Source: an uncultured cyanobacterium (GTDB lineage Bacteria; Cyanobacteriota; Cyanobacteriia; Cyanobacteriales; CAWUOF01). Taken from it: a stretch of DNA of 64,000 nt. Positions 28,258-60,862 of the stretch are shown piece after piece. Below the pieces are notes generated by a model that saw only the letters and a program-made list of their open reading frames with translations, was not told the DNA's origin and ran no database searches. Numbering within the stretch: the stretch's first letter is position 1; each line of letters starts with the position of its first letter. The translations under genes and the position numbers were made by a program. The stretch lies in contig CAVUSO010000001.1 of assembly GCA_963744145.1 (NCBI GenBank), forward strand, positions 832,001-896,000, read 5' to 3'.

Positions 28258-31200
28258 CTTTCTCAATACTGAATCCCGGCAACGGGACTGAAACAATTGA
28301 CCATGATTTTTTAAGGACATTATATGTTATAGCTTTCTCAATACTGAATCCCGGCAACGGGACTGAAACTATCTAAAATAGGATAACCCGCTTCTTTTTC
28401 TCCTACTTTCTCAATACTGAATCCCGGCAACGGGACTGAAACTTGTTCGCCGATTACCTATCTACGATAAACGTATTCGGAGATCTTTCTCAATACTGAA
28501 TCCCGGCAACGGGACTGAAACCTGGCATCTGAGCCAGAGATAAAGAAAGAAATAAAGCTTTCTCAATACTGAATCCCGGCAACGGGACTGAAACTAAACG
28601 AGCAAAAGCTGTAAAAAGAACCATAACACATCTTTCTCAATACTGAATCCCGGCAACGGGACTGAAACTATCGTCGGTTTGTTAGTTACAATATTGTCAA
28701 CTTTCTCAATACTGAATCCCGGCAACGGGACTGAAACTGGCGATTTCACGATTAAGGCAGAATCCGATTTAAGCCTTTCTCAATACTGAATCCCGGCAAC
28801 GGGACTGAAACTTGGGAATAGAGTTATTAAAATTAAATTATGATATTAACTTTCTCAATACTGAATCCCGGCAACGGGACTGAAACTTCTGAAGCTCATG
28901 CTTAATTTGCATGAGCATCCCCACCTTTCTCAATACTGAATCCCGGCAACGGGACTGAAACCCTCTGTACTCATGCCGTTCAAGAAAAACTTGAAACTTT
29001 CTCAATACTGAATCCCGGCAACGGGACTGAAACTCTTGTATAGATGGAATAATAGAATTCAATTTCTTCGGCTTTCTCAATACTGAATCCCGGCAACGGG
29101 ACTGAAACCCTTGCCCTATTAGGGCTAACTACATGAGAAGCTTTCTCCTTTCTCAATACTGAATCCCGGCAACGGGACTGAAACAAATATCCTTCTATTT
29201 CATTGTCAGAGGCTGTATGATTCTTTCTCAATACTGAATCCCGGCAACGGGACTGAAACAACTGATAAGTCCGGATCATTTAACTTCTCATGTCAGCCGG
29301 ACTTTCTCAATACTGAATCCCGGCAACGGGACTGAAACGTATCATTTACTCCTGTTGGAGCTGCTACTGCTGCTGCTTTCTCAATACTGAATCCCGGCAA
29401 CGGGACTGAAACATCTTAGTTGAGAGGATACGTTTATAACTTCATTAAGCTTTCTCAATACTGAATCCCGGCAACGGGACTGAAACCCACCACTTTTAAT
29501 AGTACATATTAAGATATCCACGTCTTTCTCAATACTGAATCCCGGCAACGGGACTGAAACTCTTTAATTTCTATACGTTCCTTAGCCAATTCATCTAACT
29601 TTCTCAATACTGAATCCCGGCAACGGGACTGAAACATAAAGTATTGTGTATTCTTATTCTGAGATAAGAACTTTCTCAATACTGAATCCCGGCAACGGGA
29701 CTGAAACAACTATCATCATGAGTACACAAGAAAAACAATTCCTCTTTCTCAATACTGAATCCCGGCAACGGGACTGAAACATGTGAATATAAATGTTGTT
29801 CGGTTAAGATAAAATCTTCCTTTCTCAATACTGAATCCCGGCAACGGGACTGAAACATTCTTTAACTTCTCTTTAAACTCTCCCCAACTTAACATGGGCT
29901 TTCTCAATACTGAATCCCGGCAACGGGACTGAAACTTGCAATCACTTCCTCAAACGCATAGCTTAGAGCGTTGAAGATGCTTTCTCAATACTGAATCCCG
30001 GCAACGGGACTGAAACTTAACTCCAGAATTTCATTGTGTACGTGGGATATCTTTCTCAATACTGAATCCCGGCAACGGGACTGAAACCTAAATGACAGAA
30101 ATTATAGTGATCTGATAAACGGTCCTTTCTCAATACTGAATCCCGGCAACGGGACTGAAACTCTTTAATATTAAATTATCAATATACTTATACACACTTT
30201 CTCAATACTGAATCCCGGCAACGGGACTGAAACTCTTTATCATATAAATTAATAAAAGGTATTTTACCCCCTCTTTCTCAATACTGAATCCCGGCAACGG
30301 GACTGAAACAATTCTTTATGATTATTTAATAAATGACTGGCAGCCACTTTCTCAATACTGAATCCCGGCAACGGGACTGAAACCACAAAACCAGGATAAA
30401 AAGATTAAACCTAGTGTTAAAGACTTTCTCAATACTGAATCCCGGCAACGGGACTGAAACCGATACAGTATCAATCAATCTAGAAGTATGTAAATCTTTC
30501 TCAATACTGAATCCCGGCAACGGGACTGAAACCTGTTCAGTATGTTGATACTGTAACTTCTGAAGTCGCTTTCTCAATACTGAATCCCGGCAACGGGACT
30601 GAAACCCTCCTCTAAACATTAATAATATAGTTCCACCTACTTTCTCAATACTGAATCCCGGCAACGGGACTGAAACAAAGTAATTACATCATGTCGTAAT
30701 CTAGATATAAACCTTTCTCAATACTGAATCCCGGCAACGGGACTGAAACTGTACATAACTAGAATATTTAACTTCTGTTGAGAATAAACTTTCTCAATAC
30801 TGAATCCCGGCAACGGGACTGAAACAGCGTTTCTCGATTCCGTTTAACTTCATCCCAGCTAGCCACTTTCTCAATACTGAATCCCGGCAACGGGACTGAA
30901 ACACCTCATGCATAGAAACTAAAAGTTTTGTTGTCTCGAACTTTCTCAATACTGAATCCCGGCAACGGGACTGAAACGTTTCCCAGAATTTTTCTGTTCT
31001 GACTTCTTCAGGCTGATGTCCAGCTTTCTCAATACTGAATCCCGGCAACGGGACTGAAACTATAGAAGAAAGGAATAAGATTACAGAGCTACATCCTTTC
31101 TCAATACTGAATCCCGGCAACGGGACTGAAACCCTGGTCTTTGTGCCCCGTATGATTTGTATGAAACCTTTCTCAATACTGAATCCCGGCAACGGGACTG

Positions 31201-34200
31201 AAACCATTGTGTAACTAACTGTGTAAAGTAGGATAATCATACTTTCTCAATACTGAATCCCGGCAACGGGACTGAAACATGTCCACTATTTCTCAAGAAA
31301 GGAGATTAGTATGTCTAGCTTTCTCAATACTGAATCCCGGCAACGGGACTGAAACCATTAATAGCTATTGAAGTCCCCTTAGTAAGTACAGCCTTTCTCA
31401 ATACTGAATCCCGGCAACGGGACTGAAACTCGTTAGTAAGGTTTTCTCACGTTACGAGTCAAATCTTTCTCAATACTGAATCCCGGCAACGGGACTGAAA
31501 CATATCGTTTTAATAATCCTGCATCATATAGAACGACTTTCTCAATACTGAATCCCGGCAACGGGACTGAAACGTCATAGGGTATCTACATAAGATATAC
31601 ATTATGTAGCTCTTTCTCAATACTGAATCCCGGCAACGGGACTGAAACTTTTATTAGTTTGTTCTACTTGTTCAGGTTCTTGTTCCTTTCTCAATACTGA
31701 ATCCCGGCAACGGGACTGAAACAGATACTAAAGATTTGGAGATAGACATGATAAAAACCTCTTTCTCAATACTGAATCCCGGCAACGGGACTGAAACGCT
31801 ATTTATCCCTATACCAGAATATTAGGTGTATAGCTTTCTCAATACTGAATCCCGGCAACGGGACTGAAACTTTTAGTAAATCAGTAATGTTGAGTTTTCC
31901 ACAACTTTCTCAATACTGAATCCCGGCAACGGGACTGAAACGCTCTATATATTGTTTATTTAAACGTTCATGTAAGGATAACCAACACCGCTTTCTCAAT
32001 ACTGAATCCCGGCAACGGGACTGAAACCATAATATATATGAGGAATATAACATTTAATTTTTTGAATCTTTCTCAATACTGAATCCCGGCAACGGGACTG
32101 AAACAAGTTAATTTAACTGATCCGCGAACAAATATTATTACTACTTTCTCAATACTGAATCCCGGCAACGGGACTGAAACTAGATTCTTCTAGATTATCT
32201 ATGGAATCTATTAATGACTTTCTCAATACTGAATCCCGGCAACGGGACTGAAACATCTATCTAGACGTTCATCACCATCTAGTTCTATCACTTTCTCAAT
32301 ACTGAATCCCGGCAACGGGACTGAAACGTTGAGAAAGCATACTGCTCTATCTGTAGGAATATTAAACTTTTTACACTTTCTCAATACTGAATCCCGGCAA
32401 CGGGACTGAAACGATCTCAAACCCAGATTTAAGTCTGATTCTATTAAAAGCTTTCTCAATACTGAATCCCGGCAACGGGACTGAAACTTTTTAAAAAATT
32501 TATTCATTATCCATGCCGAAGCTTTCTCAATACTGAATCCCGGCAACGGGACTGAAACTTCCCAGGTCCTGGTTTGAGCAGGTCGAATACTTCTTTCTCA
32601 ATACTGAATCCCGGCAACGGGACTGAAACAACCTTGCATGAATTTGGTTAATAGCCTTAACTGGCTTCTTTCTCAATACTGAATCCCGGCAACGGGACTG
32701 AAACATCACTTCTCCTAATCCTAACCCTATTCATCAAGTACTTTCTCAATACTGAATCCCGGCAACGGGACTGAAACCTGTCAATCCTTCAAAAGTTGGA
32801 TCTTGACAATCAAACTTTCTCAATACTGAATCCCGGCAACGGGACTGAAACCATTTTGTTCTCTAGCAATATTGATTTCTTCCCACTTTCTCAATACTGA
32901 ATCCCGGCAACGGGACTGAAACTTAAACTTTTTAATAGTATGACCAGACCGAATATTACTTTCTCAATACTGAATCCCGGCAACGGGACTGAAACAACCA
33001 TCCTAGATTAAGGATCTAGGAAGCTCGAATCTTTCTCAATACTGAATCCCGGCAACGGGACTGAAACAATGGATGATATAGCACAGCCTATCCTACGAGA
33101 TAGGCTTTCTCAATACTGAATCCCGGCAACGGGACTGAAACATGTCAAAATGACCGGATTCAATCGCCATTAACGCTTCTTTCTCAATACTGAATCCCGG
33201 CAACGGGACTGAAACATTCCTAAGCAAACTTTTTTGTCGTCATCGGGCAACTTTCTCAATACTGAATCCCGGCAACGGGACTGAAACTTCTTATGTTGAC
33301 TTAAGAATACATAGAGAGACTCTACTTTCTCAATACTGAATCCCGGCAACGGGACTGAAACTAGATACCCTTGCAAAGCTCCGTTAGTTCTACTACTTTC
33401 TCAATACTGAATCCCGGCAACGGGACTGAAACTTTACTTGAATCGTTTTTTTCGGAAGTTCAAGAACCTTTCTCAATACTGAATCCCGGCAACGGGACTG
33501 AAACTCACGGCCAGTGGCTCCGGTAAAGTCGGAGTTTTTTCTCAACTTTCTCAATACTGAATCCCGGCAACGGGACTGAAACATTTAAACCTAGTTTTTG
33601 GGAGTATTTCTGTTGCGGTTCTTTCTCAATACTGAATCCCGGCAACGGGACTGAAACTTCTGATTCATCTTTAATTTCTAATTCTTCATCTTTCTCAATA
33701 CTGAATCCCGGCAACGGGACTGAAACTCATTTTGCTCAAGGAAAAACTGCGCTAGCTCGATATGACCACTTTCTCAATACTGAATCCCGGCAACGGGACT
33801 GAAACGAGAGCGCGTTGCAAATTGATTCATACTCAAACTCGTCTTTCTCAATACTGAATCCCGGCAACGGGACTGAAACTTCCATCGTAATTTTCTGGGG
33901 TATAAACTTTGACTTTCTCAATACTGAATCCCGGCAACGGGACTGAAACCCATGTTAGTTGGACTTGGGAAGAAATCAATATCTTTCTCAATACTGAATC
34001 CCGGCAACGGGACTGAAACTTCCTATCCCTAATTCGTACAGGGGATTATATAGTTGATCTTTCTCAATACTGAATCCCGGCAACGGGACTGAAACATTCT
34101 GTTTCTAAAATCACTGGGATTGATAACGCCACTTTCTCAATACTGAATCCCGGCAACGGGACTGAAACATGAGAAGCGGGTAGATGTTCAATCTCTATTG

Positions 34201-37200
34201 ATTCAACTTTCTCAATACTGAATCCCGGCAACGGGACTGAAACTCCGAAAGCCACTGTATCCGTAACTCCAACCTGATTCCTTTCTCAATACTGAATCCC
34301 GGCAACGGGACTGAAACAACCATACCAGAGTTTTCCACCATAAACCCACGTTAGAAGAATGCTTTCTCAATACTGAATCCCGGCAACGGGACTGAAACAT
34401 ATTAAATGCAATCTGATTTGCAAGGGCAGACTTTCCTTTCTCAATACTGAATCCCGGCAACGGGACTGAAACAACAAAAAATGGATACCCAAGAAGCTGG
34501 AATTGTTGTAAAGCTTTCTCAATACTGAATCCCGGCAACGGGACTGAAACATTTGCCAATGAACGATTTTTACTAATTTGTTACTGCTCGGGACTTTCTC
34601 AATACTGAATCCCGGCAACGGGACTGAAACATCGACCCAGCAAGCAATAGCCCTTTACCAGCGTCTTTCTCAATACTGAATCCCGGCAACGGGACTGAAA
34701 CAACGACGACTAGAAATGATGAAGAAAATTTATTATACTTTCTCAATACTGAATCCCGGCAACGGGACTGAAACTAAACATAAACATCAGAAAAAGGTGT
34801 TACTGGATTAGCCTTTCTCAATACTGAATCCCGGCAACGGGACTGAAACGTTGGCCAAAAGCATCTTGACCTTTAAGCGTATAATACTTTCTCAATACTG
34901 AATCCCGGCAACGGGACTGAAACGTCTCCGGGAATATCCCGGCAATGTAAAAACTCACAACTTTCTCAATACTGAATCCCGGCAACGGGACTGAAACTTG
35001 GATATAAATCGTTTTAGGCAGACATCTTCTACTTTCTCAATACTGAATCCCGGCAACGGGACTGAAACACCTGACTCATTTTGTATGATCTTTTGACCAG
35101 CTTTTACGCTTTCTCAATACTGAATCCCGGCAACGGGACTGAAACTAATTTCTTTGGGGCATCAATAAGGCTGACTGAAGTCAGCTTTCTCAATACTGAA
35201 TCCCGGCAACGGGACTGAAACATCAAGGGAACAAAACTACAGAAAAGTCAGGATCTTTCTCAATACTGAATCCCGGCAACGGGACTGAAACGCTAAATAG
35301 CTACCTGATAATCCTAGAAAGACTACTTTCTCAATACTGAATCCCGGCAACGGGACTGAAACTCTTCTGGAGTGAAGGTTTGTCCAACGATGCTAGCAAC
35401 TTTCTCAATACTGAATCCCGGCAACGGGACTGAAACATAAGAAAAATAAGGGAAAACTCAAAACCTTACACCTTTCTCAATACTGAATCCCGGCAACGGG
35501 ACTGAAACTCCATTAACGCTTCCTATGTCTTGGCGACATAAAACAACTTTCTCAATACTGAATCCCGGCAACGGGACTGAAACCCTTTTGAAGCAGTTGA
35601 AATAAATGGGCCAAAGGTGAACTTTCTCAATACTGAATCCCGGCAACGGGACTGAAACAAGCAGAAGAAATTGTGATCATAAATCCCAATATGATCTTTC
35701 TCAATACTGAATCCCGGCAACGGGACTGAAACGAGCAAATGTCTGAAAAAGAGATGCAGAATACTTTAAAAGCTTTCTCAATACTGAATCCCGGCAACGG
35801 GACTGAAACTAACGGTTGTCCCTATTTGGCAGTCCCAGCTTGCCAACTTTCTCAATACTGAATCCCGGCAACGGGACTGAAACCTGACGGAGAGGGATAT
35901 TTGGGCACACCTCCACAACCTTTCTCAATACTGAATCCCGGCAACGGGACTGAAACACAGAAAGAAGAAAGAATGCGCGATATCTCCTCCTTTCTCAATA
36001 CTGAATCCCGGCAACGGGACTGAAACTTGAATTTGCTAATCCTGCCGCTGGAATTGCGTTAGGAGCCTTTCTCAATACTGAATCCCGGCAACGGGACTGA
36101 AACTTTTCTAAACAAGACGATTTAAAATTTATCAACAATGCTTTCTCAATACTGAATCCCGGCAACGGGACTGAAACATAAGAAAGCGAAAGAGTAGACA
36201 TAGAAAACCTCACTTTCTCAATACTGAATCCCGGCAACGGGACTGAAACAAAAGACGGACTATATTCACTGTCCCCATCACAGTGAAGGCTTTCTCAATA
36301 CTGAATCCCGGCAACGGGACTGAAACATCGGATTGTTGAGCAAGTCATCTCTTTATCTAATCAGCTTTCTCAATACTGAATCCCGGCAACGGGACTGAAA
36401 CAAACTGCTTCTCTACCGGAGAATAGCTCAACATCGGCTTTCTCAATACTGAATCCCGGCAACGGGACTGAAACCGAAATGATAAATCCAATTGAATGGA
36501 AAGGCTTCTTCTTTCTCAATACTGAATCCCGGCAACGGGACTGAAACTCGGAGAATGCCGAGCAAGTATCTGTTGATATTGCTTTCTCAATACTGAATCC
36601 CGGCAACGGGACTGAAACAGTCTTAAAATCATCTACATCAATATTTTTCCAACTTTCTCAATACTGAATCCCGGCAACGGGACTGAAACTAATCCGACTC
36701 GCTCACACAAATTTAAGGTAAAACTTTCTCAATACTGAATCCCGGCAACGGGACTGAAACCTTGCAAAAGTCCCAATTGCCGGGCGATCGCAAATCTTTC
36801 TCAATACTGAATCCCGGCAACGGGACTGAAACCATTGTATTAGATGGCGGTGGAACGCCTCGACCGAGCTTTCTCAATACTGAATCCCGGCAACGGGACT
36901 GAAACAATAGTCGATTTGCTATGATGAAAGAGTGGATAAAAACTTTCTCAATACTGAATCCCGGCAACGGGACTGAAACTGCTAGTCATTAATTTACCCA
37001 TGATATTCATGATAAAGCTTTCTCAATACTGAATCCCGGCAACGGGACTGAAACATCATAGTGGCTTTTTGTAAATTAGTCCAACTGCCGCTTTCTCAAT
37101 ACTGAATCCCGGCAACGGGACTGAAACTTTAATGGAAATGAAACAGCGCAATATTCGCTAAATCTTTCTCAATACTGAATCCCGGCAACGGGACTGAAAC

Positions 37201-40200
37201 TGATACCCCAGTTTTTCTACTTGCTTAAGGATTGCGACTTTCTCAATACTGAATCCCGGCAACGGGACTGAAACGTTATAATACCCATTTATAAATGAAA
37301 CTCCACAGCTTTCTCAATACTGAATCCCGGCAACGGGACTGAAACTCTGAAGAAAAAAGTGCAATAAATCAATCATTGCTTCTTTCTCAATACTGAATCC
37401 CGGCAACGGGACTGAAACATGCAGCTAGTCCTCAAATTATTAAAATTGCAAGTACTTTCTCAATACTGAATCCCGGCAACGGGACTGAAACGGGCACAAA
37501 TTCTTGCCACAGACACAGCTCAATTAGTACTTTCTCAATACTGAATCCCGGCAACGGGACTGAAACTCTGTAAAAGTCCGGGGATGAGAAATAAGTGTAA
37601 GTATCTTTCTCAATACTGAATCCCGGCAACGGGACTGAAACAAGCCAATGAGATGAAAGGAATATCGCCCGATGATTTCTTTCTCAATACTGAATCCCGG
37701 CAACGGGACTGAAACGATTATGAATCACCTAAAACCCTTCATTTAAGAACTTTCTCAATACTGAATCCCGGCAACGGGACTGAAACATTCATAATCTACC
37801 GCTTCTTTTAAAACCCAAACTTCACCTCTTTCTCAATACTGAATCCCGGCAACGGGACTGAAACTATGTGGTCTCTTCATCCCATAGTTTAGTTAAATCC
37901 CCGACTTTCTCAATACTGAATCCCGGCAACGGGACTGAAACTATACAAATCCAAACTCATACTACCATTGTAATCCTAATTGCTTTCTCAATACTGAATC
38001 CCGGCAACGGGACTGAAACAAACTAACCTCCTCTTCTAGTTCGTCTGACAGTTCCCCTTTCTCAATACTGAATCCCGGCAACGGGACTGAAACATGTGTT
38101 GGAAGAGAAATATATTGAACAAATTCCGATCTTTCTCAATACTGAATCCCGGCAACGGGACTGAAACAAGCTTACCACGATTCGTGGTTGAAGCTTTCCA
38201 CCTTTCTCAATACTGAATCCCGGCAACGGGACTGAAACTTACTACACCACCCACAACACCTCTGCCACGATTGAGCTTTCTCAATACTGAATCCCGGCAA
38301 CGGGACTGAAACGAGAGCTGATCGCATCAATACCTAAGCTGATACCCTCTTTCTCAATACTGAATCCCGGCAACGGGACTGAAACGCCCAAATTGCAGGG
38401 CACCGCGATGGAAGGATGATCGTCTTTCTCAATACTGAATCCCGGCAACGGGACTGAAACGACTTAGCTTTTTTAGTTCCCGATCCACCACCGGACGGCA
38501 CAGCTTTCTCAATACTGAATCCCGGCAACGGGACTGAAACAAAGCAAAAAAACTTTTTTCTCGCAATTTAGCAACTTTCTCAATACTGAATCCCGGCAAC
38601 GGGACTGAAACACTATATGTAATTTATCTTCATATAATATAGTAAAAGCTTTCTCAATACTGAATCCCGGCAACGGGACTGAAACCAGTTAATGGCATCT
38701 CAAATGCTGTTGCTGCAATCAATCTTTCTCAATACTGAATCCCGGCAACGGGACTGAAACTTCCTGCAAATACCAGGTGAAGTGATGCGACTAGCTGCCT
38801 TTCTCAATACTGAATCCCGGCAACGGGACTGAAACTTGAGAAAGTTGTCCAGATTGAATCGCTCCAGTTATCGCTGTCTTTCTCAATACTGAATCCCGGC
38901 AACGGGACTGAAACGAGAGTCAAGTGTTAGTAATTGTCCTGGGTCAAGCTTTCTCAATACTGAATCCCGGCAACGGGACTGAAACAAGAATAAGCCAGAC
39001 AATTTATTACCGTTTTCTGCTTTCTCAATACTGAATCCCGGCAACGGGACTGAAACTGGCTGCGTTCATATTTTTCCTTATTAGCTAAGTCTTCTCTTTC
39101 TCAATACTGAATCCCGGCAACGGGACTGAAACACGTTCTAATGATGGATTTTGACTTTAAATCAATCTTTCTCAATACTGAATCCCGGCAACGGGACTGA
39201 AACGAATCAGCTCATTTTCAAGCAGCATGGAATGATCCGACTTTCTCAATACTGAATCCCGGCAACGGGACTGAAACCAGAAAAGCTTTTGAGCCGTTCG
39301 GGTTCGGGTTGAGGACTGCTTTCTCAATACTGAATCCCGGCAACGGGACTGAAACTTAGCCTGTTACGGCATGACTTACTACGGAAAGCAGCTTTCTCAA
39401 TACTGAATCCCGGCAACGGGACTGAAACTAATAGCACCGCTAGAATTTTGACCAGAATAAGGTGCTTTCTCAATACTGAATCCCGGCAACGGGACTGAAA
39501 CCGATAACGATGTTATCAATGCGCCAAGTTTGTCAGCTTTCTCAATACTGAATCCCGGCAACGGGACTGAAACTTCTGCACTGATATAGAATAAATCAGC
39601 ATCTTGTCCCTCTTTCTCAATACTGAATCCCGGCAACGGGACTGAAACGATCAGGGAAGATTTTCTTACCTTGCTCATGGTCTTGCTGCTTTCTCAATAC
39701 TGAATCCCGGCAACGGGACTGAAACCTGTTCTGGTAGGTTATCTCCCGGAACAATTTCTAAATCTTTCTCAATACTGAATCCCGGCAACGGGACTGAAAC
39801 TCACTCAGACGGTCTGGTGCGTCACTACCAGACATACCACTTTCTCAATACTGAATCCCGGCAACGGGACTGAAACTATTCATATAATCTTCTTCTATAA
39901 GATAATGATCTACAGCTTTCTCAATACTGAATCCCGGCAACGGGACTGAAACAATATCAAGATTAAATTGATCATCTACAGGATATCCGATCTTTCTCAA
40001 TACTGAATCCCGGCAACGGGACTGAAACTATAAGATTAAATATACACCTGTATGTTTACATCTAACTTTCTCAATACTGAATCCCGGCAACGGGACTGAA
40101 ACTTTGTTTCCCTACAACCATATAGGGAAACGGAGACAACTTTCTCAATACTGAATCCCGGCAACGGGACTGAAACAATTATAGTTAGGATATATAATTT

Positions 40201-43200
40201 TAGCCAGACTGCTTTCTCAATACTGAATCCCGGCAACGGGACTGAAACTATAGAAGATAGATTATAAGATTAGCTACATCTACCTTCTTTCTCAATACTG
40301 AATCCCGGCAACGGGACTGAAACGATTACTATATAGATACTCAACCATAGATGAGTAAGCTTTCTCAATACTGAATCCCGGCAACGGGACTGAAACAGCC
40401 TGTTTACAATTGCATTTACAAACTTAGGAATGCTTTCTCAATACTGAATCCCGGCAACGGGACTGAAACATACAGCTTCACTGATTGCTTCACTAAAACG
40501 TAACTTTCTCAATACTGAATCCCGGCAACGGGACTGAAACACTCAGCTATGCCAAACCATAGATGACACTGCGACAGCTTTCTCAATACTGAATCCCGGC
40601 AACGGGACTGAAACCGATCGCTGGGGGTCAACTAGGCGGCGAAATCGGAGCTTTCTCAATACTGAATCCCGGCAACGGGACTGAAACGGTAACTTTGCAA
40701 TACTTGATATCTGCCATTTTTTGCCGCTTTCTCAATACTGAATCCCGGCAACGGGACTGAAACGTATATTTTGAAGTTCCTAAGACATAAAATAAATCAC
40801 TTTCTCAATACTGAATCCCGGCAACGGGACTGAAACTTTACAATGGTGGACAATGATATTAAACAGAGGCTGCTTTCTCAATACTGAATCCCGGCAACGG
40901 GACTGAAACATTTAGCTACTTCAGCCTGCTCCCTTTTGGCATCTTTCTCAATACTGAATCCCGGCAACGGGACTGAAACTTTACAATTACTCCGGCGGCA
41001 AAACCAACAGCTCCACTTTCTCAATACTGAATCCCGGCAACGGGACTGAAACCCCTCCAGGGACTGAACCCAACAGACCTTTAATTTCCCGCTTTCTCAA
41101 TACTGAATCCCGGCAACGGGACTGAAACATATGCTGGAGCGGAAATTTAATCAGCAGATTTCGTTAGCTTTCTCAATACTGAATCCCGGCAACGGGACTG
41201 AAACACAGACGATCATTCTTATCAAACTCCAGACCGGCAGGACTTTCTCAATACTGAATCCCGGCAACGGGACTGAAACTCCAAAAAGAATCCTAAAAAA
41301 CCACCATCAATAACTTTCTCAATACTGAATCCCGGCAACGGGACTGAAACAAATTACGCCTTCTTCTGTTAGTGTAAACCCATTGACTTTCTCAATACTG
41401 AATCCCGGCAACGGGACTGAAACGACAAGTCTTTCAGGGACAATGTTGCCTATTTTCTCTTTCTCAATACTGAATCCCGGCAACGGGACTGAAACCTTTA
41501 GCTCATCTTGATACTCTTGTGTTTCTTGAAACTCAAACTTTCTCAATACTGAATCCCGGCAACGGGACTGAAACCTTCCTGAGACATATTTAAGTCTTCT
41601 CTTAGTTTTGCCAACTTTCTCAATACTGAATCCCGGCAACGGGACTGAAACAGATTCAGATCGTCAAGACGATCTAAATCTGAAATCCTTTCTCAATACT
41701 GAATCCCGGCAACGGGACTGAAACATCTTATCTAGATCACGATGACAAAACTCATACTTAACTTTCTCAATACTGAATCCCGGCAACGGGACTGAAACCA
41801 ATCTGTTTTTCAATTGCTACTCCGGACTTTTCCTTTCTCAATACTGAATCCCGGCAACGGGACTGAAACAATTCTTGAGTTTTGTTGCGATCGCATCGGT
41901 ACGCAACTTTCTCAATACTGAATCCCGGCAACGGGACTGAAACATGCGACTAGCTGCCACTATACAACCTGACGATACAGTCTTTCTCAATACTGAATCC
42001 CGGCAACGGGACTGAAACAGGAACTATTTTAAAGGCAAAAGTAGATCAGTTTTATCCTTTCTCAATACTGAATCCCGGCAACGGGACTGAAACATTGTCG
42101 CAATACTAGAAGTTCCCGCTGCCGTTCCCGCTTTCTCAATACTGAATCCCGGCAACGGGACTGAAACATAATGCAGTAAAAATTACTACTCCGAGAGCAT
42201 GGACAACTTTCTCAATACTGAATCCCGGCAACGGGACTGAAACCTCTCCTTCAGAAATCAACTGATCAATAGAAATATCAAGCTTTCTCAATACTGAATC
42301 CCGGCAACGGGACTGAAACCAGCAGGTTCTGAACCGGGAGGGGTTGGCGTTGGCGTTGGCTTTCTCAATACTGAATCCCGGCAACGGGACTGAAACATAA
42401 AGATAGAGAGCCATACGCTCTTACCCTTTCCCCTTCTTTCTCAATACTGAATCCCGGCAACGGGACTGAAACATGGATGACAGGGGGATAATATCGGCAG
42501 ATTTGGCCACTTTCTCAATACTGAATCCCGGCAACGGGACTGAAACAAACGGTTAAAGTCTATCGTGCTGCTTACGCTGCTTTCTCAATACTGAATCCCG
42601 GCAACGGGACTGAAACAACCCACTCCATTGGCCATGCCCGTGGAAATTTCTTCTCTTTCTCAATACTGAATCCCGGCAACGGGACTGAAACTGTTGCTTG
42701 GGGTTCCGATGGATGACTATCTAGTCATCTTTCTCAATACTGAATCCCGGCAACGGGACTGAAACATAATCTTCTTTATCAATTTCTTCCTGAATCTCCA
42801 AGCTTTCTCAATACTGAATCCCGGCAACGGGACTGAAACTTGTTGCGGTTGGTGAATGTTCTGGGGGCGGAAGGTTGGCTTTCTCAATACTGAATCCCGG
42901 CAACGGGACTGAAACTTATCGCTTAGATCGAAACCTTTTAAATGATCTAAACTTTCTCAATACTGAATCCCGGCAACGGGACTGAAACACTTGATTGCCT
43001 CCCGTAGCGGAAAATAATATTAAATCTTTCTCAATACTGAATCCCGGCAACGGGACTGAAACCAATTTGTTCCAGATTCGTAACCCGAATTGATCCTACT
43101 TTCTCAATACTGAATCCCGGCAACGGGACTGAAACTGATTTTAATCTCCGAAGTTGTTTGTGTCTTTCATCTTTCTCAATACTGAATCCCGGCAACGGGA

Positions 43201-43699
43201 CTGAAACAACAGTTCTTCATAAATTAATTCGATGCAGTCCTTAACTCCAGCTTTCTCAATACTGAATCCCGGCAACGGGACTGAAACGAGGAAAAAATGA
43301 TCCTACATATTCAGAAAATCAAACTTTCTCAATACTGAATCCCGGCAACGGGACTGAAACTTGTTCTTAGTTCATCGTGATTCTCTTGTCCCGCAGACTC
43401 AAACTTTCTCAATACTGAATCCCGGCAACGGGACTGAAACTCGCCTCCCACTTCTTCAGTGGCGTAGTTCCGTCCGACTTTCTCAATACTGAATCCCGGC
43501 AACGGGACTGAAACTTTGCAAGGGAAGTAAAAAATCTCAACAGGAACTTTCTTCTTTCTCAATACTGAATCCCGGCAACGGGACTGAAACTAACCGTCGG
43601 TAGCTATTCCACCATCTCTTAATGTGGCTTTCTCAATACTGAATCCCGGCAACGGGACTGAAACTTGTTTGAAGACAGAGTTTTGCTATCCGAACTTGT
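28258..43699 (+). CRISPR. Main CRISPR array, repeat CTTTCTCAATACTGAATCCCGGCAACGGGACTGAAAC (37 nt), about 208 repeats, spacers about 32-49 nt; type I-D-like
   Basis: Identical repeats from 28258 to 43664 (manual count about 208), hairpin TCCCG-GCAA-CGGGA and 3' GAAAC; resembles the Synechocystis 6803 CRISPR1 (I-D) repeat. Confidence 0.98.
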
Positions 43700-44448
43700 T
43701 GTCACTTGAACCATAAAATGGCAGCAGGGTAGAACCATAAAATGGCAGTAAAAATCGCTGAAATACTGATTATTGGGTTGAGGCTAAAAGCAATTGAGGG
43801 TGGGAACGGAAGCATAAAATGGCAGTAAGTACCAGAAAATGGCAGCATTATGTAGCAATAAATACAAATAACTAACTAATAGCCTTGAAAACCTCTGGTC
43901 AAAAGACTTCAGCGGAATTGTCATTTAAGAAGAGCAAATAGACAATTTACTCTGGAGCTGGGAAAATTGGGCAAGTGAATCGCCGAAAATCCTCAGTTAG
44001 ACATCAAAGATGATGACAGTGTTGATTTTCTGGCCAATTGAGCGGGGATTGAGCAGAAGAGTTCTTGTCGGCTGAAAAGCTTACCAATCAAAGACTTTAA
44101 AGATGATCCTAGAAAAACCAGAACCATAAAGTGGCAGTAAATCAAAAAATCATGAAAAAAAACGGGGGAATGGGAACAATTGTTCGCTTGAATAGAAATG
44201 TGTGACCCTAGAAAAAACACTGGGAATAAAGCAAAAATGGTAACAGGAGAAGAGTTGAGCAAATAGTCTGGGAACATCAAATCTCGGCAGGTTATAAGTT
44301 ACATAGTAAATTTCTCTTTCACCACCCTGGATAATTTGTACTGTCCCAAAATAATTTATACTTTCTCATCTTTGTGGAAGCATAAAGTGGCAGTATCCTA
44401 TTGGAAGCATAAAGTGGCAATTACTGCCATTTTATGGTTCAAGTGACA
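43700..44448. mobile_element. 749-bp non-autonomous transposon with 25-bp TGT..ACA terminal inverted repeats, inserted in the CRISPR array
   Basis: TGTCACTTGAACCATAAAATGGCAG (43700-43724) and its exact reverse complement (44424-44448); additional copies of a 17-bp motif inside; no transposase ORF. Confidence 0.85.
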
Positions 44449-44464
44449 ATAAGAAACTATGTTT

Positions 44465-44646
44465 CTTTCTCAATACTGAATCCCGGCAACGGGACTGAAA
44501 CTTATTCCCTAATAACCCTAGGGAATATTTTAACCAGCTTTCTCAATACTGAATCCCGGTAACGGGACTGATACCTCTCCACTCATCAGTTCGATCTTCA
44601 TTTCTAACACTTTCTCAATACTGAATCCCGGTAACGGGACTGATCC
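44465..44646 (+). CRISPR. Trailer part of the array: 3 repeats, progressively degenerate
   Basis: Perfect repeat at 44465; variants ...CCCGGTAACGGGACTGATAC at 44538 and ...GACTGATCC at 44610. Confidence 0.9.
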
Positions 44647-44679
44647 CAATTTCGTAAATTAGCACTACAGATAATTGCT

Positions 44680-45070
44680 CCCTTCGACTCCGCCCTTCGA
44701 CTACGCGAGCGGGTAAACTCAGGGTAAACGATCGCTCATCTCAAGGAAACATCAACAGAATTTTGTCCGGATTTGTATTAGGGGCGAAGCATTCGGGCGA
44801 TAATTTATTACTCAAATTTTACCCTGAGCGAAGTCGAAGGGCGGTTAATATTTATATCCGAATGCTGATGCCTACGGCATCGCTACGTGAACGCCCAGTT
44901 CTTTGCCGAGAGTTCCCAAAAAATTCTTAACTGAATCGTATTGATATATATTTGATCGATTGGCTGCATAGATGGTGAGGGCTCTCGCATTTCGGTAATA
45001 TTATGCTTCGTTTGAGCTATCATTTATGCGCCGAAATGCTTTGCCCCTACAGTTAACTGAACCATATTGA
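44680..45070. repeat. Nested REP/MITE-type repeats inside the array trailer
   Basis: CCCTTCGACTACGC units, TAGGGGCGAAGCATTCGG...CCGAATGCT hairpins and CTTAACTGAA.CGTATTG ends, shared with the 51031-51180 element. Confidence 0.7.
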
Positions 45071-45138
45071 TTTGTAGTTAGAATTCAATAATTGGTATGA
45101 AATACGGTAAAAGGAACCGAATAAGTAGTGGGAGGAAA

Positions 45139-45223
45139 CTTTCTCAATACTGAATCCCGGTAACGGGACTGAAACTGTTATTCGGTTTTCAAGGTTCAGG
45201 TCTGTAACTTTCTCAATACTGAA
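45139..45223 (+). CRISPR. Detached terminal repeat-spacer-half-repeat unit
   Basis: Variant repeat at 45139-45175 (GGTAAC), 32-nt spacer, then the first 16 nt of the repeat at 45208-45223. Confidence 0.85.
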
Positions 45224-46514
45224 CTCCGATCAGGTTACCACTTTGCTGCTGCCTCGGTAAATCGATAATCAACTCTGTTCCTCTTCCCAAAGTAGAAAAA
45301 CAAGTTAATTTACCACGATGTTTTTGGGTAATAATTTGGTAACTGATCGGTAGTCCCATTCCCGTACCTTTCCCAACTGGTTTGGTCGTGAAAAATGGAT
45401 TAAATATCTGTTTTTGCATTGCTTCTGTCATTCCTGGTCCATTATCGGCGATCGCAATTCTGACCCAATCGGAATCAACTACCGATGTAGAAATTGTAAT
45501 GGTCGGTGCGAGATAGTGTGGCAGATCAACTGTTACATTTTTTTGTTGTTCTTCTAGTACATCGATCGCATTCACAATTAGATTCATAAATACCTGGTTA
45601 AGTTCCCCAGATAAACATTCTACTTTGGGAATTTTACCATAGCTTTTAATTATTTGGATGGTGGGATGGTCATAATTAGCTCTGAGACGATGTTGTAAGA
45701 TCACTAAAGTATTGTCAATTCCTTCATGAATATTCACCAGTTTAAATCCGGATTCATCTGTCCGTGAAAAATTTTGGAGCGATCGCACTAAATCCCGAAT
45801 CCGATTGGTGCCCATTTGCATTGAATTGAGCAATTTAACTAAGTCTTCTTCTAAAAATTCCAGCTCAATTGTGTCGATTTCAGTTTGAATTTCTAAGTCA
45901 GGTATTGGGTAATGTTTTTGATAAAGCTGAATCAGACTCAGGAGATTTTCAACATATTCTTTCACATAGCCAATATTCCCATGAATAAAGTTAACAGGAT
46001 TATTAATTTCATGGGCAATTCCTGCCATTAATTGTCCTAAACTAGACATTTTTTCAGTTTGGATCATTTGGGGAAATTGCTGAAGTTGATTTAGGGTTTC
46101 CTTTAAGTTTTCTGCTTGCTGTTTTAAAGATACTTGCGATCGCCTTAATTCTAGTTCTATATAGGATTTTTCGCGAATTTCTTGAATTAAAGGTCGATAG
46201 ATGAAAAAGTATAGTGCTGGAGAAATTAGTAGTGATAACAGGGTCGAATCAAGAAAAGCTTCGACTAGATCTGGTATTTTTGGCAAAACTAGAAATAATA
46301 ACATCACAAAAGTCTCAGCCAAAAATACTGAAAGTGCCATTTTCATTAAAAATTCCCATGGATTTCTTAGCTTGATATTTAGATCTATAGAATCTAAATC
46401 AATCTGTTTCAGCTCCATTATCGATTCTTCAATTATCGGTTTTTTCTGATTAGCTGTACTAAATTTTTTAAGTTTTTGGTCTTGATGTTGAGCAGGTGTG
46501 GTAATCATTGTCAA
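45213..46514 (-). CDS. Membrane-bound sensor histidine kinase
   Basis: Two TM helices, H-box AGIAHEINNP, N-box NQVFMNLIVNA, DNGPG and GKGTGMGL; start uncertain. Confidence 0.9.
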   Translation of the reverse strand: MTMITTPAQHQDQKLKKFSTANQKKPIIEESIMELKQIDLDSIDLNIKLRNPWEFLMKMALSVFLAETFVMLLFLVLPKIPDLVEAFLDSTLLSLLISPALYFFIYRPLIQEIREKSYIELELRRSQVSLKQQAENLKETLNQLQQFPQMIQTEKMSSLGQLMAGIAHEINNPVNFIHGNIGYVKEYVENLLSLIQLYQKHYPIPDLEIQTEIDTIELEFLEEDLVKLLNSMQMGTNRIRDLVRSLQNFSRTDESGFKLVNIHEGIDNTLVILQHRLRANYDHPTIQIIKSYGKIPKVECLSGELNQVFMNLIVNAIDVLEEQQKNVTVDLPHYLAPTITISTSVVDSDWVRIAIADNGPGMTEAMQKQIFNPFFTTKPVGKGTGMGLPISYQIITQKHRGKLTCFSTLGRGTELIIDLPRQQQSGNLIGVQY

Positions 46515-51030: not shown

Positions 51031-51180
51031 CAATACAGTTTGTAGGGGCGAAGCATTCGGGCGATAATTTATCACTTACACCAGTTGATCTTATATCCGA
51101 ATGCTTCGCCCTTCGACTACGCTCAGGGTAAACCCTGCTTCGCCGATATCTTCAAAAAAAATCTTAACTGAACCGTATTG
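51031..51180. mobile_element. MITE-like repeat (CAATAC...CTTAACTGAACCGTATTG ends) with nested hairpin repeats
   Basis: Related copies at 56932-57067, 60701-60800 and within 44770-45070. Confidence 0.65.
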
Positions 51181-53014: not shown

Positions 53015-54124
53015 ATGATAGCAAATCTCAAGATCCAAAACTTCAAACCATTTCAGGATTGCTCACTTCAACTCAAACCCCTAACTCTACTTTCTGGTCT
53101 AAATAGCACTGGTAAATCTTCGGTTTTACAAGTGTTACTTTTATTACGTCAGTCATACCAACAGGGTTTATTACCTCATAAAGGTTTAGCACTTAATGGT
53201 GACCTAGTCCGGATTGGAATCGCTCAAGATGCTCTTTTTGAAGGGTCAAAAGAAAAATCGATCGGGTTTGATATCCAATGGCAAAATTGCCAAAAAGGAA
53301 ATTGGCATTTCCATTATAATCAACAAACGGACATCTTAGAGATTGATTCACCTCCAGCTGCTGCTGAAATTTTTAAATCAAGCATTTTTAGCGATAAATT
53401 CTATTACTTACAAGCAGAGCGGATCGGTTCTCGCTCTTATTTAGAAATAGCTGATCAGCAAGTAAAACAGCATCGTCAACTTGGTACGAGAGGGGAATAT
53501 ACAACACATTTTCTTTCTCTATATGGAGATGAAAAAATTACCAGTCCCCTCCTGAGTCATCCAGAAGAACAATCTCTGAGTCTCATGTCTCAAGTAGAAG
53601 CATGGATGAGAGAAATTAGCCCAGGAATCAGACTGAAAGTTCAATCAAATCCTAGTCTCAATCTCGTCAATTTGCAATGTTGCTATGGATTGAGTGATTC
53701 CTATCTTACTAACAATGTAGGGTTAGGAATTAGTTATAGTTTACCCATAATTGTAGCTCTGCTAACGTCAAAACCCGGAACATTAATCATTATTGAAAAT
53801 CCAGAAGCTCATCTTCATACCAAAGCACAAGCGAAAATTGGTGAATTATTTGCTCTGGTCGCTAATTGTGGGATTCAGATGATTATAGAAACTCACAGTG
53901 AACATATTTTAAATGGGATTCGTCTAGCTGTTTATGCTGGCAAATTACCACCTAAATACCTCCAATTACATTACTTTCATCGTCGCGAACAAAACGGACA
54001 AACAGTCCCAGAAATTATCTCTCCTCGGATTGATAAAAATGGCCGAATTGATTATTGGTCAGCCGGATTTTTTGATGAATGGGAGAAAGGCTTAGATGTT
54101 TTATTAGAATCAGTAGAAAAATGA
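53015..54124 (+). CDS. AAA/ABC-type ATPase with C-terminal DUF3696
   Basis: GLNSTGKSS Walker A, IIIENPEAHLH, IIETHSEH, C-terminal IDKNGRIDYWSAGFFD. Confidence 0.8.
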   Translation: MIANLKIQNFKPFQDCSLQLKPLTLLSGLNSTGKSSVLQVLLLLRQSYQQGLLPHKGLALNGDLVRIGIAQDALFEGSKEKSIGFDIQWQNCQKGNWHFHYNQQTDILEIDSPPAAAEIFKSSIFSDKFYYLQAERIGSRSYLEIADQQVKQHRQLGTRGEYTTHFLSLYGDEKITSPLLSHPEEQSLSLMSQVEAWMREISPGIRLKVQSNPSLNLVNLQCCYGLSDSYLTNNVGLGISYSLPIIVALLTSKPGTLIIIENPEAHLHTKAQAKIGELFALVANCGIQMIIETHSEHILNGIRLAVYAGKLPPKYLQLHYFHRREQNGQTVPEIISPRIDKNGRIDYWSAGFFDEWEKGLDVLLESVEK

Positions 54125-54126
54125 TT

Positions 54127-54894
54127 TTATTGCTCTTGATCTAGACCTAATGACTTTAAGCGATCGCGCAGTTTTTCGGTTTGTTGACGTTCTTGAGCTA
54201 AAGCAGCTAAAGCTTGTTCTTTTGCTTGTTGTTCTTTTTGGGCTCTTTCCGTTCCTAACAAGATTAAATTTTCCTCTTGATCATAAAATCTCAGCCAAGT
54301 GGCATTTTCTTGATAAATTGTACCTGACCATTTCCCTAACCATAATCCTAATATTTCACACCATAACCAACCTTGCTCATTGGGAATAATCTCCTGATAT
54401 TGTCGGTTTGCTCCTAAATTCCATCCTTGGAATGAATCTGGTTGAAACGGATCATAGATAAAGTAATATTGAGTCCGAAACGTCTGTTCATAGATTTTTT
54501 TCTTTTCAGTTTTGTCTTGTTTAGCTGTAGTCGGTGACAGTAATTCTACAATCACATCGGGATAGCGTCCTTCTTCTTCCCACACTACCCATCCTTGTCT
54601 TTCTTTTGTACCATCCACATCTAAGACGACAAAAAAATCTGGTCCGCGAAAATCTTGATTTCTGGCTTGTTTGCTGCTGTAATAAACAAACATATTTCCA
54701 CCAGCAAAAAAATCATCTCTTTCTTGAAGAGCTTCATAGATAGCTTCAATCAAGACATTGATTGCGATGCGATGTCGATTACTTTCCAAGGGGACTCCAT
54801 CATCAAAAATTAAATCGGTTGGGGGAAGAGGTGGTGTCCATTCCTGTGGTGCCAAATTTTCCAGTTCTGGTGGTTGGATCAGATTAGTGGACAT
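54127..54894 (-). CDS. Uma2 family endonuclease
   Basis: GPDFFVV, PDVIVELLSPTT, YFIYDP and a C-terminal coiled coil. Confidence 0.9.
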   Translation of the reverse strand: MSTNLIQPPELENLAPQEWTPPLPPTDLIFDDGVPLESNRHRIAINVLIEAIYEALQERDDFFAGGNMFVYYSSKQARNQDFRGPDFFVVLDVDGTKERQGWVVWEEEGRYPDVIVELLSPTTAKQDKTEKKKIYEQTFRTQYYFIYDPFQPDSFQGWNLGANRQYQEIIPNEQGWLWCEILGLWLGKWSGTIYQENATWLRFYDQEENLILLGTERAQKEQQAKEQALAALAQERQQTEKLRDRLKSLGLDQEQ

Positions 54895-56893: not shown

Positions 56894-56931
56894 AAATCAA
56901 ACATTGGCTTTTTACTAATTACAATAACTCT

Positions 56932-57067
56932 CAATACGATTCGGTTAAGTGTAGGGGTGAAGCATTCGGGCGATAATTAAACACTGAAGTGAGTAGCATT
57001 AGACCCGAATGCTTCACCCTTCTTCTGCGTCGATATCTCCCAAAATATCCTTAAACGAACCATACTA
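56932..57067. mobile_element. MITE-like repeat copy
   Basis: CAATACGATTCGGTTAAG left end, GGGTGAAGCATTCGGG...CCCGAATGCTTCACCC hairpin, degenerate right end. Confidence 0.6.
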
Positions 57068-60592: not shown

Positions 60593-60862
60593 TGACCTCT
60601 CCCCCAACCCCTCTCCTAAGAGGAAAGGGGAGTAAGAATGATTTCTCCCCCAACCACTCTCCTATGAGAAAAGGGGAGCAGAATTAATCATTTTAAAGCT
60701 CAATATGGTTCGGTTAATTGTAGGGGTGAAGCATTCGGGCGATCATTGAACAATTAAAAGAGTAATATTAGACCCGAATGCTTCACCCTTCTTCTGCTTA
60801 CAAGAGTTTGAAGACAAATTATTTTCAAAGTCCCCCTTTTTAAGGGGGATTTAGGGGGATCT
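60593..60862. repeat. Cluster of cyanobacterial intergenic hairpin repeats and a MITE fragment
   Basis: Two CTCTCCCCCAACCCCTCTCC...GGGGAG-type units (also at about 7197 and 27813), a MITE-like copy at 60701, and TCCCCCTTTTTAAGGGGGATTTAGGGGGAT. Confidence 0.7.

Follow-up and report, generated by a model that had tools for sequence, protein, structure and literature searches.

A cyanobacterial family of Tn7-like transposons homing to CRISPR arrays was reported from bioinformatic analysis in 2025 (Chacon Machado & Peters, Mob DNA 2025;16:5; PMC11837452). Its members encode a fused TnsA-TnsB, TnsC and one short TnsD and carry no cargo. Eighteen of the 22 lie in CRISPR arrays, in a single orientation and at a fixed spacer position, with a conserved target motif that belongs to the next repeat and is 40-50 bp away from the left end, and some members occupy non-CRISPR sites that keep this motif. 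A subgroup stands out by unusual site patterns and by a right end some 500 bp long. That TnsD reads the repeat is the inference of those authors, and the protein is without the C-terminal DNA-binding helix-turn-helix of its tRNA-targeting relatives. Attempts to reconstitute transposition in E. coli failed, and the authors suspect that a factor of the host is involved. Target duplications are tabulated as detected (11), degraded (7), semi-degraded (1) or not determined (7), and several of the degraded cases come from genomes with more than one copy. The paper also lists copies with large internal deletions and proposes that degraded copies, some of which occur as several identical copies, move in trans; the terms “miniature”, “non-autonomous” and “MITE” are absent from its main text (PMC11837452).

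The founding example of the family lies on pMIC7113.03 (PMC11837452). This plasmid of Allocoleopsis franciscana PCC 7113 holds two copies (L002 14283-19390 and L007 8229-13336) of 5,108 bp each, with tnsAB, tnsC and a tniQ-family tnsD as their only genes and no resolvase. Each copy sits within a CRISPR spacer, the two in different arrays, and the array of the first adjoins type III cas genes. Over L002 942-13506 and L007 1-7273 two arrays bracket type III genes, cas3', cas6, cas4 and cas1, and it has been suggested that the arrangement could act as a composite transposon (PMC11837452). The tRNA-targeting Tn7-like elements and the type I-D and I-B2 CASTs of cyanobacteria are placed as sister group in PMC11837452. 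Going by that paper and PMC9881144, they share with the array-targeting family the fused TnsA-TnsB, TnsC and an insertion that TnsD directs to a set distance from a conserved motif, and differ from it in their cargo, often Cas genes, a second TniQ, a TnsD with C-terminal helix-turn-helix and a tRNA gene as target. Laboratory mini-Tn7 donors, as used in the assay of PMC11837452 itself, consist of two ends only, flanking a marker, with the proteins supplied in trans.

Here we describe a natural counterpart of such a donor in a 64-kb window, which is the whole stretch of cyanobacterial DNA that was analysed. Unlike a mini-Tn7 donor it originated by deletion and keeps short remnants of tnsAB and tnsD. 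It is very probably a gene-less internal-deletion derivative of the array-targeting Tn7-like family (PMC11837452), a reading that rests on the homology of its ends, its gene remnants, its position and its orientation, all of them evident at the level of sequence. The element and its ends comprise the following features.

43700..44448, plus strand: mini-element of 749 bp, 37.9% G+C, with its right end at 43700 and its left end at 44448
43700..44236, plus strand: right end, 537 nt, starting with the terminal 8 bp TGTCACTT
43708-43724, 43732-43748, 43809-43825, 43829-43845 (degenerate) and 44121-44137, plus strand: presumed TnsB sites of the right end, from the pattern search
44335..44448, plus strand: left end, 114 nt from the tnsD stop to the tip, ending in the terminal 8 bp AAGTGACA
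44377-44393 (plus strand), 44404-44420 (plus strand) and 44424-44440 (minus strand): sites of the left end, from the pattern search
43708, 43732, 43809, 44121 and 44377, plus strand: exact 17-bp sites, from the pattern search with up to 2 mismatches
43829, plus strand: degenerate 17-bp site with 2 mismatches
44404, plus strand: 17-bp site with 1 mismatch
44424, minus strand: inverted copy of the 17-bp site, exact

The perfect 25-bp inverted ends with TGT...ACA tips noticed in the initial annotation are confirmed, since the reverse complement of 43700-43724 (TGTCACTTGAACCATAAAATGGCAG) agrees with 44424-44448 at every base. Once the 5 flanking bases on either side are added (43695-43724 and 44424-44453) the inverted repeat reaches 30 nt with one mismatch. 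The terminal 8 bp read TGTCACTT at the right and AAGTGACA at the left, so that the left tip equals the right tip. A search for the 17-bp site GAASCATAAARTGGCAG with at most 2 mismatches returned eight matches in the window, all eight within the element and none elsewhere, against a chance expectation of 0.02, and none of 100 shuffles reached eight. These are the same eight copies, at the same coordinates, that the initial annotation had listed. Its description of the site as pseudo-palindromic needs a small correction, since the palindromy is partial, with a CCAT-N3-ATGG core. The 17-bp repeats are presumed transposase-binding sites, of which the right 537 nt hold five and the left 114 nt three. 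Two of these latter three share the orientation of those in the right end, and this layout differs from that of classical Tn7.

The low RNA folding energy of the whole element (z -4.0) reflects pairing between the inverted ends. Promoter-like sites are no commoner than in shuffles (5 against 4.1 expected), and the one terminator-like site (1.7 expected) lies on the minus strand, none being predicted on the plus strand within the element; these counts argue neither for read-through nor against it. Rfam over 43400-45400 with E up to 1 gave nothing in the element, the only matches being weak CRISPR-repeat matches outside it. As first noted from the letters alone, there is no transposase: none of the ORFs of the element has a Pfam match, and no transposase or Cas domain occurs in the 33 window ORFs scanned. 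The sole ORF of at least 90 aa in the element, a 95-aa frame on the minus strand (43993-44280), has neither Pfam family nor homologue and was treated as spurious.

The surroundings of the element are those of a CRISPR array.

28258..45175, plus strand: CRISPR array, 212 repeats of CTTTCTCAATACTGAATCCCGGCAACGGGACTGAAAC with spacers of 32-49 nt
43628..43664, plus strand: repeat 208, the last before the element
43665..43699, plus strand: left part of the interrupted spacer, 35 nt, ending in CTTGT at the place expected for a 5-bp target duplication
44449..44464, plus strand: right part of the interrupted spacer, 16 nt, beginning with ATAAG
44465..44501, plus strand: repeat 209, exact, the presumed TnsD attachment site, with GAAAC at 44497-44501
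around 45208-45229: truncated repeat after the array

The element is thus located inside the array, as had been claimed, between repeats 208 and 209 of 212. Repeats 1-209 are all exact and three of the repeats after the element have 2, 3 and 1 mismatches; this trailing pattern and the 3' GAAAC of the repeat indicate that the leader is on the low-coordinate side, which puts the element near the trailer, with four spacers downstream of it. The array itself is very large (about 17 kb) and, with no cas domain in the 33 scanned ORFs, is an orphan within the window.

The position within the spacer follows the rule of the published family. From the left end to the GAAAC of repeat 209 we count 48 nt, where the family has 43-48 and its large-right-end subgroup 46-48; when checked against the two pMIC7113.03 copies, this way of counting reproduces the 44 and 45 tabulated in PMC11837452. 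The order of tnsAB start and tnsD end along the ...GAAAC strand is that of both pMIC7113.03 copies, and the target repeat of the second of these, CTTTC...AATCCCCGCAAGGGGACTGAAAC, resembles the repeat of the window. The idea of array targeting is supported, in that the place of the element in the array is no accident; the family homes to CRISPR spacers (PMC11837452).

The flanks, in contrast, lack the 5-bp target duplication that is general in the Tn7 family, the two pentamers CTTGT and ATAAG being identical at 1 of 5 positions. The family table, too, has 7 degraded and 1 semi-degraded duplication beside the 11 detected ones (PMC11837452), and the pMIC7113.03 copies have clean duplications of CCTTC and ATAAA. 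The same two pentamers (43695-43699 and 44449-44453) are inverted copies of each other at four of five positions. This match could be due to chance (about 1.6%) or be a trace of conversion between the tips. We would speculate that the flank pattern together with the identical tips arose by recombination of two copies in one array, or by tip conversion. Removal of the element and of one 5-bp copy leaves a 46-nt spacer, and only 3 of 209 ordinary spacers are as long or longer. Neither half of the interrupted spacer has another copy in the 64-kb window.

Between the two ends, cargo genes were not found, and the coding traces are confined to the remnants of tnsAB and tnsD.

44237..44266, plus strand: probable tnsAB start remnant, an ATG, the peptide MVTGEELSK and a stop, from comparison of N-termini
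44267..44274, no strand: approximate deletion junction, placed from the tnsAB and tnsD remnants
44275..44334, plus strand: 3' end remnant of tnsD (tniQ-family), HQISAGYKLHSKFLFHHPG and then the stop TAA at 44332-44334, from protein alignments

The tnsD remnant was found with proteins of the TnsD family as queries. The 27 protein clusters tested were those 49-96% identical to the TnsD of pMIC7113.03, and 18 of them align with their C-termini to 44275-44325 on the plus strand, the other nine having no match there. The best match, P0006, has 403 residues and aligns with 385-397; of these 13, 11 are identical, at an E of 0.001 in a small search space. In the 403-aa relatives HQISARYKLHNKF is followed by six more residues and the stop, and the HQISAGYKLHSKFLFHHPG of the element stays in register with them up to the stop codon, so that the last 19 codons are represented with up to 11 of 19 identical. 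The remnant is clear only with these closer 403-aa relatives as queries; the proteins of pMIC7113.03 and of an Acidobacteriota element described below gave only weak tblastn matches to the element (best E 0.12-0.17). In the protein collection the 27 clusters (formed at 90% identity), most of them from short metagenome contigs, stand apart from the next matches at 43% or less, and the family is probably larger than described, given 16 homologues in the published survey (PMC11837452).

For tnsAB the 9-codon peptide from the ATG at 44237 is only suggestive of a start remnant. Relatives of TnsAB begin with MLTESELEEW (Calothrix sp. 336/3) or MLTELELNEW, to be compared with MVTGEELSK in the element. 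When aligned at the first Met, at least 4 of the 9 residues are shared by 18 of 120 TnsAB relatives as against 58 of 2400 control windows, and tblastn of the same 120 relatives against the element gave no convincing match past the start-codon region. Read from these remnants, the anatomy of the element is a right end, about nine tnsAB codons, one deletion, the last 19 codons of tnsD and a left end. The two remnants point to an origin from a full-length copy by one internal deletion, which could have occurred in place. Judged from full-length relatives of 5.1-5.7 kb, about 4.5-5 kb would be missing at the junction. No gene is left, the fused TnsA-TnsB, TnsC and short TnsD of the family all being absent, whereas the pMIC7113.03 elements have all three. 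The element is a non-autonomous derivative and not an autonomous member of the family, in agreement with what the initial annotation had concluded from the missing transposase.

Relatives were sought by their ends in 185,579 species genomes, a collection that excluded the genome of the window itself. A scan with the 24-nt tip, in which two positions were left free, gave a single exact match, on the Acidobacteriota MAG contig JBAWCO010000054.1. No cyanobacterial species genome in this collection has the exact end, and a full-length partner that shares these ends exactly did not turn up in it; blastn of the element against 72,556 plasmids gave no match either. The Acidobacteriota element (L001 1603-11443, on a contig of 11.4 kb) has the tip of the window element at 24 of 24 nt. 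Its left end agrees at 40 of 45 nt (88.9%) and shows the same arrangement of a site, 3 nt and an inverted site. Inward from the tip follow a TetR gene, two other genes, TniQ, a TniB/TnsC-like ATPase, a Mu-transposase-C protein and a TnsA-like piece. It differs from the element of the window in its high G+C, its cargo (the TetR gene and the two others) and its phylum. Its TniQ, of 667 aa, includes an HTH of the AraC type. The Acidobacteriota element is found 31 nt upstream of the gene for a DUF6094 methyltransferase, with no adjoining CRISPR array. An in-frame stop breaks its tnsA and a frameshift its tnsB, and its other end runs off the contig. The comparison suggests that the module of ends and transposase occurs beyond Cyanobacteria, where the published family was defined.

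By tblastn the Acidobacteriota transposase matched 4117 plasmid records, 46 of them over at least 80% of the query. Among the matches listed, all 30 of 30 were cyanobacterial plasmids with 38-42% identity to proteins annotated as TnsA-domain or DDE proteins, and the nearest plasmid relatives among them were cyanobacterial TnsA-TnsB fusions, one of them on pMIC7113.03. The first 16 nt of both tips of the pMIC7113.03 elements (TGTCACTTGAACCATA) are identical to those of the window element. Their right end (205 nt) and left end (151 nt) are built from sites of the form GAASCATAnnnTGTCCA, and the elements lie 44-45 nt from GAAAC. The 17-bp site of the window, allowing up to 3 mismatches, is absent from the pMIC7113.03 element and from a second cyanobacterial locus with a TnsAB relative (L003), in which the element tip has no match either; by this pattern search the two lineages use a different site core. 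A tblastn search of the plasmids with the pMIC7113.03 TniQ gave a family-level match to pMIC7113.03 only, the other records (32 of 33) staying below 60% with a best value of 36.6%, and thus provided no DNA of a large-right-end relative for comparison.

By these relatives the ends of the element are of the Tn7 type. Inspection of the genes between other such ends, one of the checks proposed at the outset, revealed tnsAB-tnsC-tniQ. The “Tn7/Tn5053-like” label holds in its first half, as the tips bound tnsAB-tnsC-tniQ elements in two public records, and fails in its second, as their TnsA is fused to TnsB; Tn5053/Tn402, with tniA-tniB-tniQ, a tniR resolvase and no TnsA, is not matched. The initial annotation had further offered IS21 as an alternative. 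IS21 elements have TG...CA tips with repeated subterminal sites, and a MITE descended from an insertion sequence, IS21-type or other, would share these features; the irregularly spaced direct repeats also resemble the iterons or operator arrays of plasmids or phages. We give such an origin next to no credence. IS21 carries istA/istB between its multi-repeat ends, whereas the elements with the same tips as ours carry tnsAB, tnsC and tniQ, no ist-like domain was seen in them, and they have 5-bp duplications. A tnsD remnant lies inside the element, and blastn found no plasmid match. The IS21, iteron and operator readings were rejected on the tips and on the internal tnsD remnant. The Tn7-like system that the initial annotation had thought possibly uncharacterised is the family already described (PMC11837452). 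In a literature search of a limited collection we found no other paper on gene-less array-targeting elements, and a full-text search with the sequence of the 17-bp site gave nothing related.

Within the family, the large-right-end subgroup comprises elements of Calothrix sp. 336/3, Desmonostoc muscorum LEGE 12446, Richelia, Scytonema sp. UIC 10036 and Tolypothrix bouteillei VB521301 (PMC11837452). The right end of the window element (537 nt) falls within their range of 505-571 nt, its left end of 114 nt equals their “LE full” value, and both have a TnsD C-terminus of the 403-aa type, the same array orientation and no cargo. The terminal 8 bp AAGTGACA equal the tabulated right-end tip of most family members (PMC11837452). 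The right ends were compared by eye over the first 400 nt of the tabulated subgroup right ends. Here colinearity with the elements of Scytonema, Tolypothrix, Richelia and Desmonostoc extends over the first 170 nt or so, where 8 nt are followed by a site, 7 nt, a second site, about 60 nt of partial similarity and then GGAAGCAnnnnATGGCAGTAAGTA (PMC11837452), and an 11-nt gap in the element shortens its fourth site relative to these right ends. In two respects the element is unlike the subgroup: its left tip is AAGTGACA where the subgroup has AAGT(T/A/C)ACA, and its site core CATAAAATGGCAG differs from that of every tabulated lineage, the large-right-end subgroup included (PMC11837452). These differences in left tip and site core indicate that the element belongs to a separate lineage. 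Its 749 bp have lost all three genes, whereas the smallest tabulated element, of 2,546 bp, retains tnsD (PMC11837452).

Relatives with the same tips lead us to infer a TnsB-type DDE transposition with TnsC and a TniQ-family selector. The TniQ-family TnsD would recognise the 3' part of the repeat (...GAAAC) and, via the AAA+ protein TnsC, direct the fused TnsA-TnsB transposase, which would bind the repeated 17-bp sites in both ends. Insertion would then take place 43-48 bp upstream of GAAAC, that is into the preceding spacer, with the left end turned towards the repeat that was recognised and the tns genes pointing the same way as the array. By this route the spacer between repeats 208 and 209 would have received a copy of the lineage whose right end measures about 500 bp, and either that copy or an ancestor elsewhere would have lost the stretch from about codon 9 of tnsAB to about codon 384 of tnsD in a single deletion, leaving only the cis-acting parts. 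Guidance by crRNA and Cas proteins of the host, in the manner of a self-targeting CAST, instead of TnsD reading repeat DNA, seems to us very improbable. It would fit a TnsD without C-terminal helix-turn-helix and a system inactive in E. coli for which a host factor is suspected (PMC11837452), as well as the occupation of arrays with different repeat sequences. Yet neither the pMIC7113.03 elements nor the 33 scanned window ORFs include a cas gene, the distance is fixed to the GAAAC of the downstream repeat and not to any protospacer, and some members lie at non-CRISPR sites with the motif kept (PMC11837452).

Two histories may be considered for the gene-less copy. In one, the full-length transposon inserted here and lost its genes by one deletion, so that the 749 bp are a fossil that never moved itself; we consider the chances of this to be evenly balanced. 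The element is the sole copy in the 64-kb window and no other exact end occurs in the cyanobacterial species genomes searched. One clean junction separates the tnsAB start and tnsD end remnants, and the canonical position and orientation are those that a primary TnsD-directed insertion would have. Large internal deletions are on record for other copies (PMC11837452). However, a simple insertion followed by deletion should retain the 5-bp duplication, which is absent here, and with perfect ends and all sites intact there is nothing to prevent mobilisation.

The other history makes the element an active non-autonomous one, deleted elsewhere and inserted at this spacer by TnsAB, TnsC and TnsD that a full-length copy within the cell provided. 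This is a serious possibility to which we would assign somewhat under half of our belief. The perfect 25-bp tips with five right-end and three left-end sites speak for it, as do the identical degraded copies for which mobilisation in trans has been proposed (PMC11837452), and the missing duplication would fit a recombination of two copies, implying more than one insertion event. On the other side, neither the window nor the species genomes searched contain a second copy or a partner, and no duplication marks a fresh insertion. The element may at present be mobilisable by the proteins of a full-length copy, and it may affect crRNA production, for instance by cutting off the four downstream spacers from the leader-driven transcript, as the initial annotation proposed.

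A bolder version, which we think unlikely, is that of a live MITE-like passenger moved in trans between spacers, with flanks that record recombination or gene conversion between copies. If this were true such elements would delete or reshuffle stretches of CRISPR arrays, here in an array of 212 repeats without nearby cas genes, and the near-identical Acidobacteriota left end would, if true, mean that a module of transposase and ends was exchanged across phyla while the target selector was swapped. The novelty of our finding is limited in that the element is an extreme deletion derivative of a described family and not a new kind of element. It adds to the family published in 2025 its smallest known derivative, with zero genes, and a lineage with ends unlike those tabulated. 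If such minis move, the element is a natural minimal donor with cis requirements of 537 nt and 114 nt, useful for reconstituting the system that failed in E. coli. It is also a test case for the silencing of spacers downstream of such insertions. For annotation, what looks like an 800-nt “spacer” close to the end of a cyanobacterial array can turn out to be the scar of a transposon and not the boundary of the array.

Two further features of the window were observed. The array is interrupted a second time by 492 nt between repeats 211 and 212 (44647-45138). This segment holds an inverted repeat (44690-44706 and 44828-44844), and short parts of it recur in the intergenic regions 51041-51180, 56931-56978 and 60700-60743; its appearance is that of small dispersed repeats gathered in a patch, not that of a Tn7-like element. 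Further downstream a gene for an AAA_15/AAA_21/DUF3696 ATPase (53015-54124) adjoins a Uma2-family endonuclease gene (54127-54894), and the two (53015-54894) may form a small defence-type gene pair, unrelated to the transposon.
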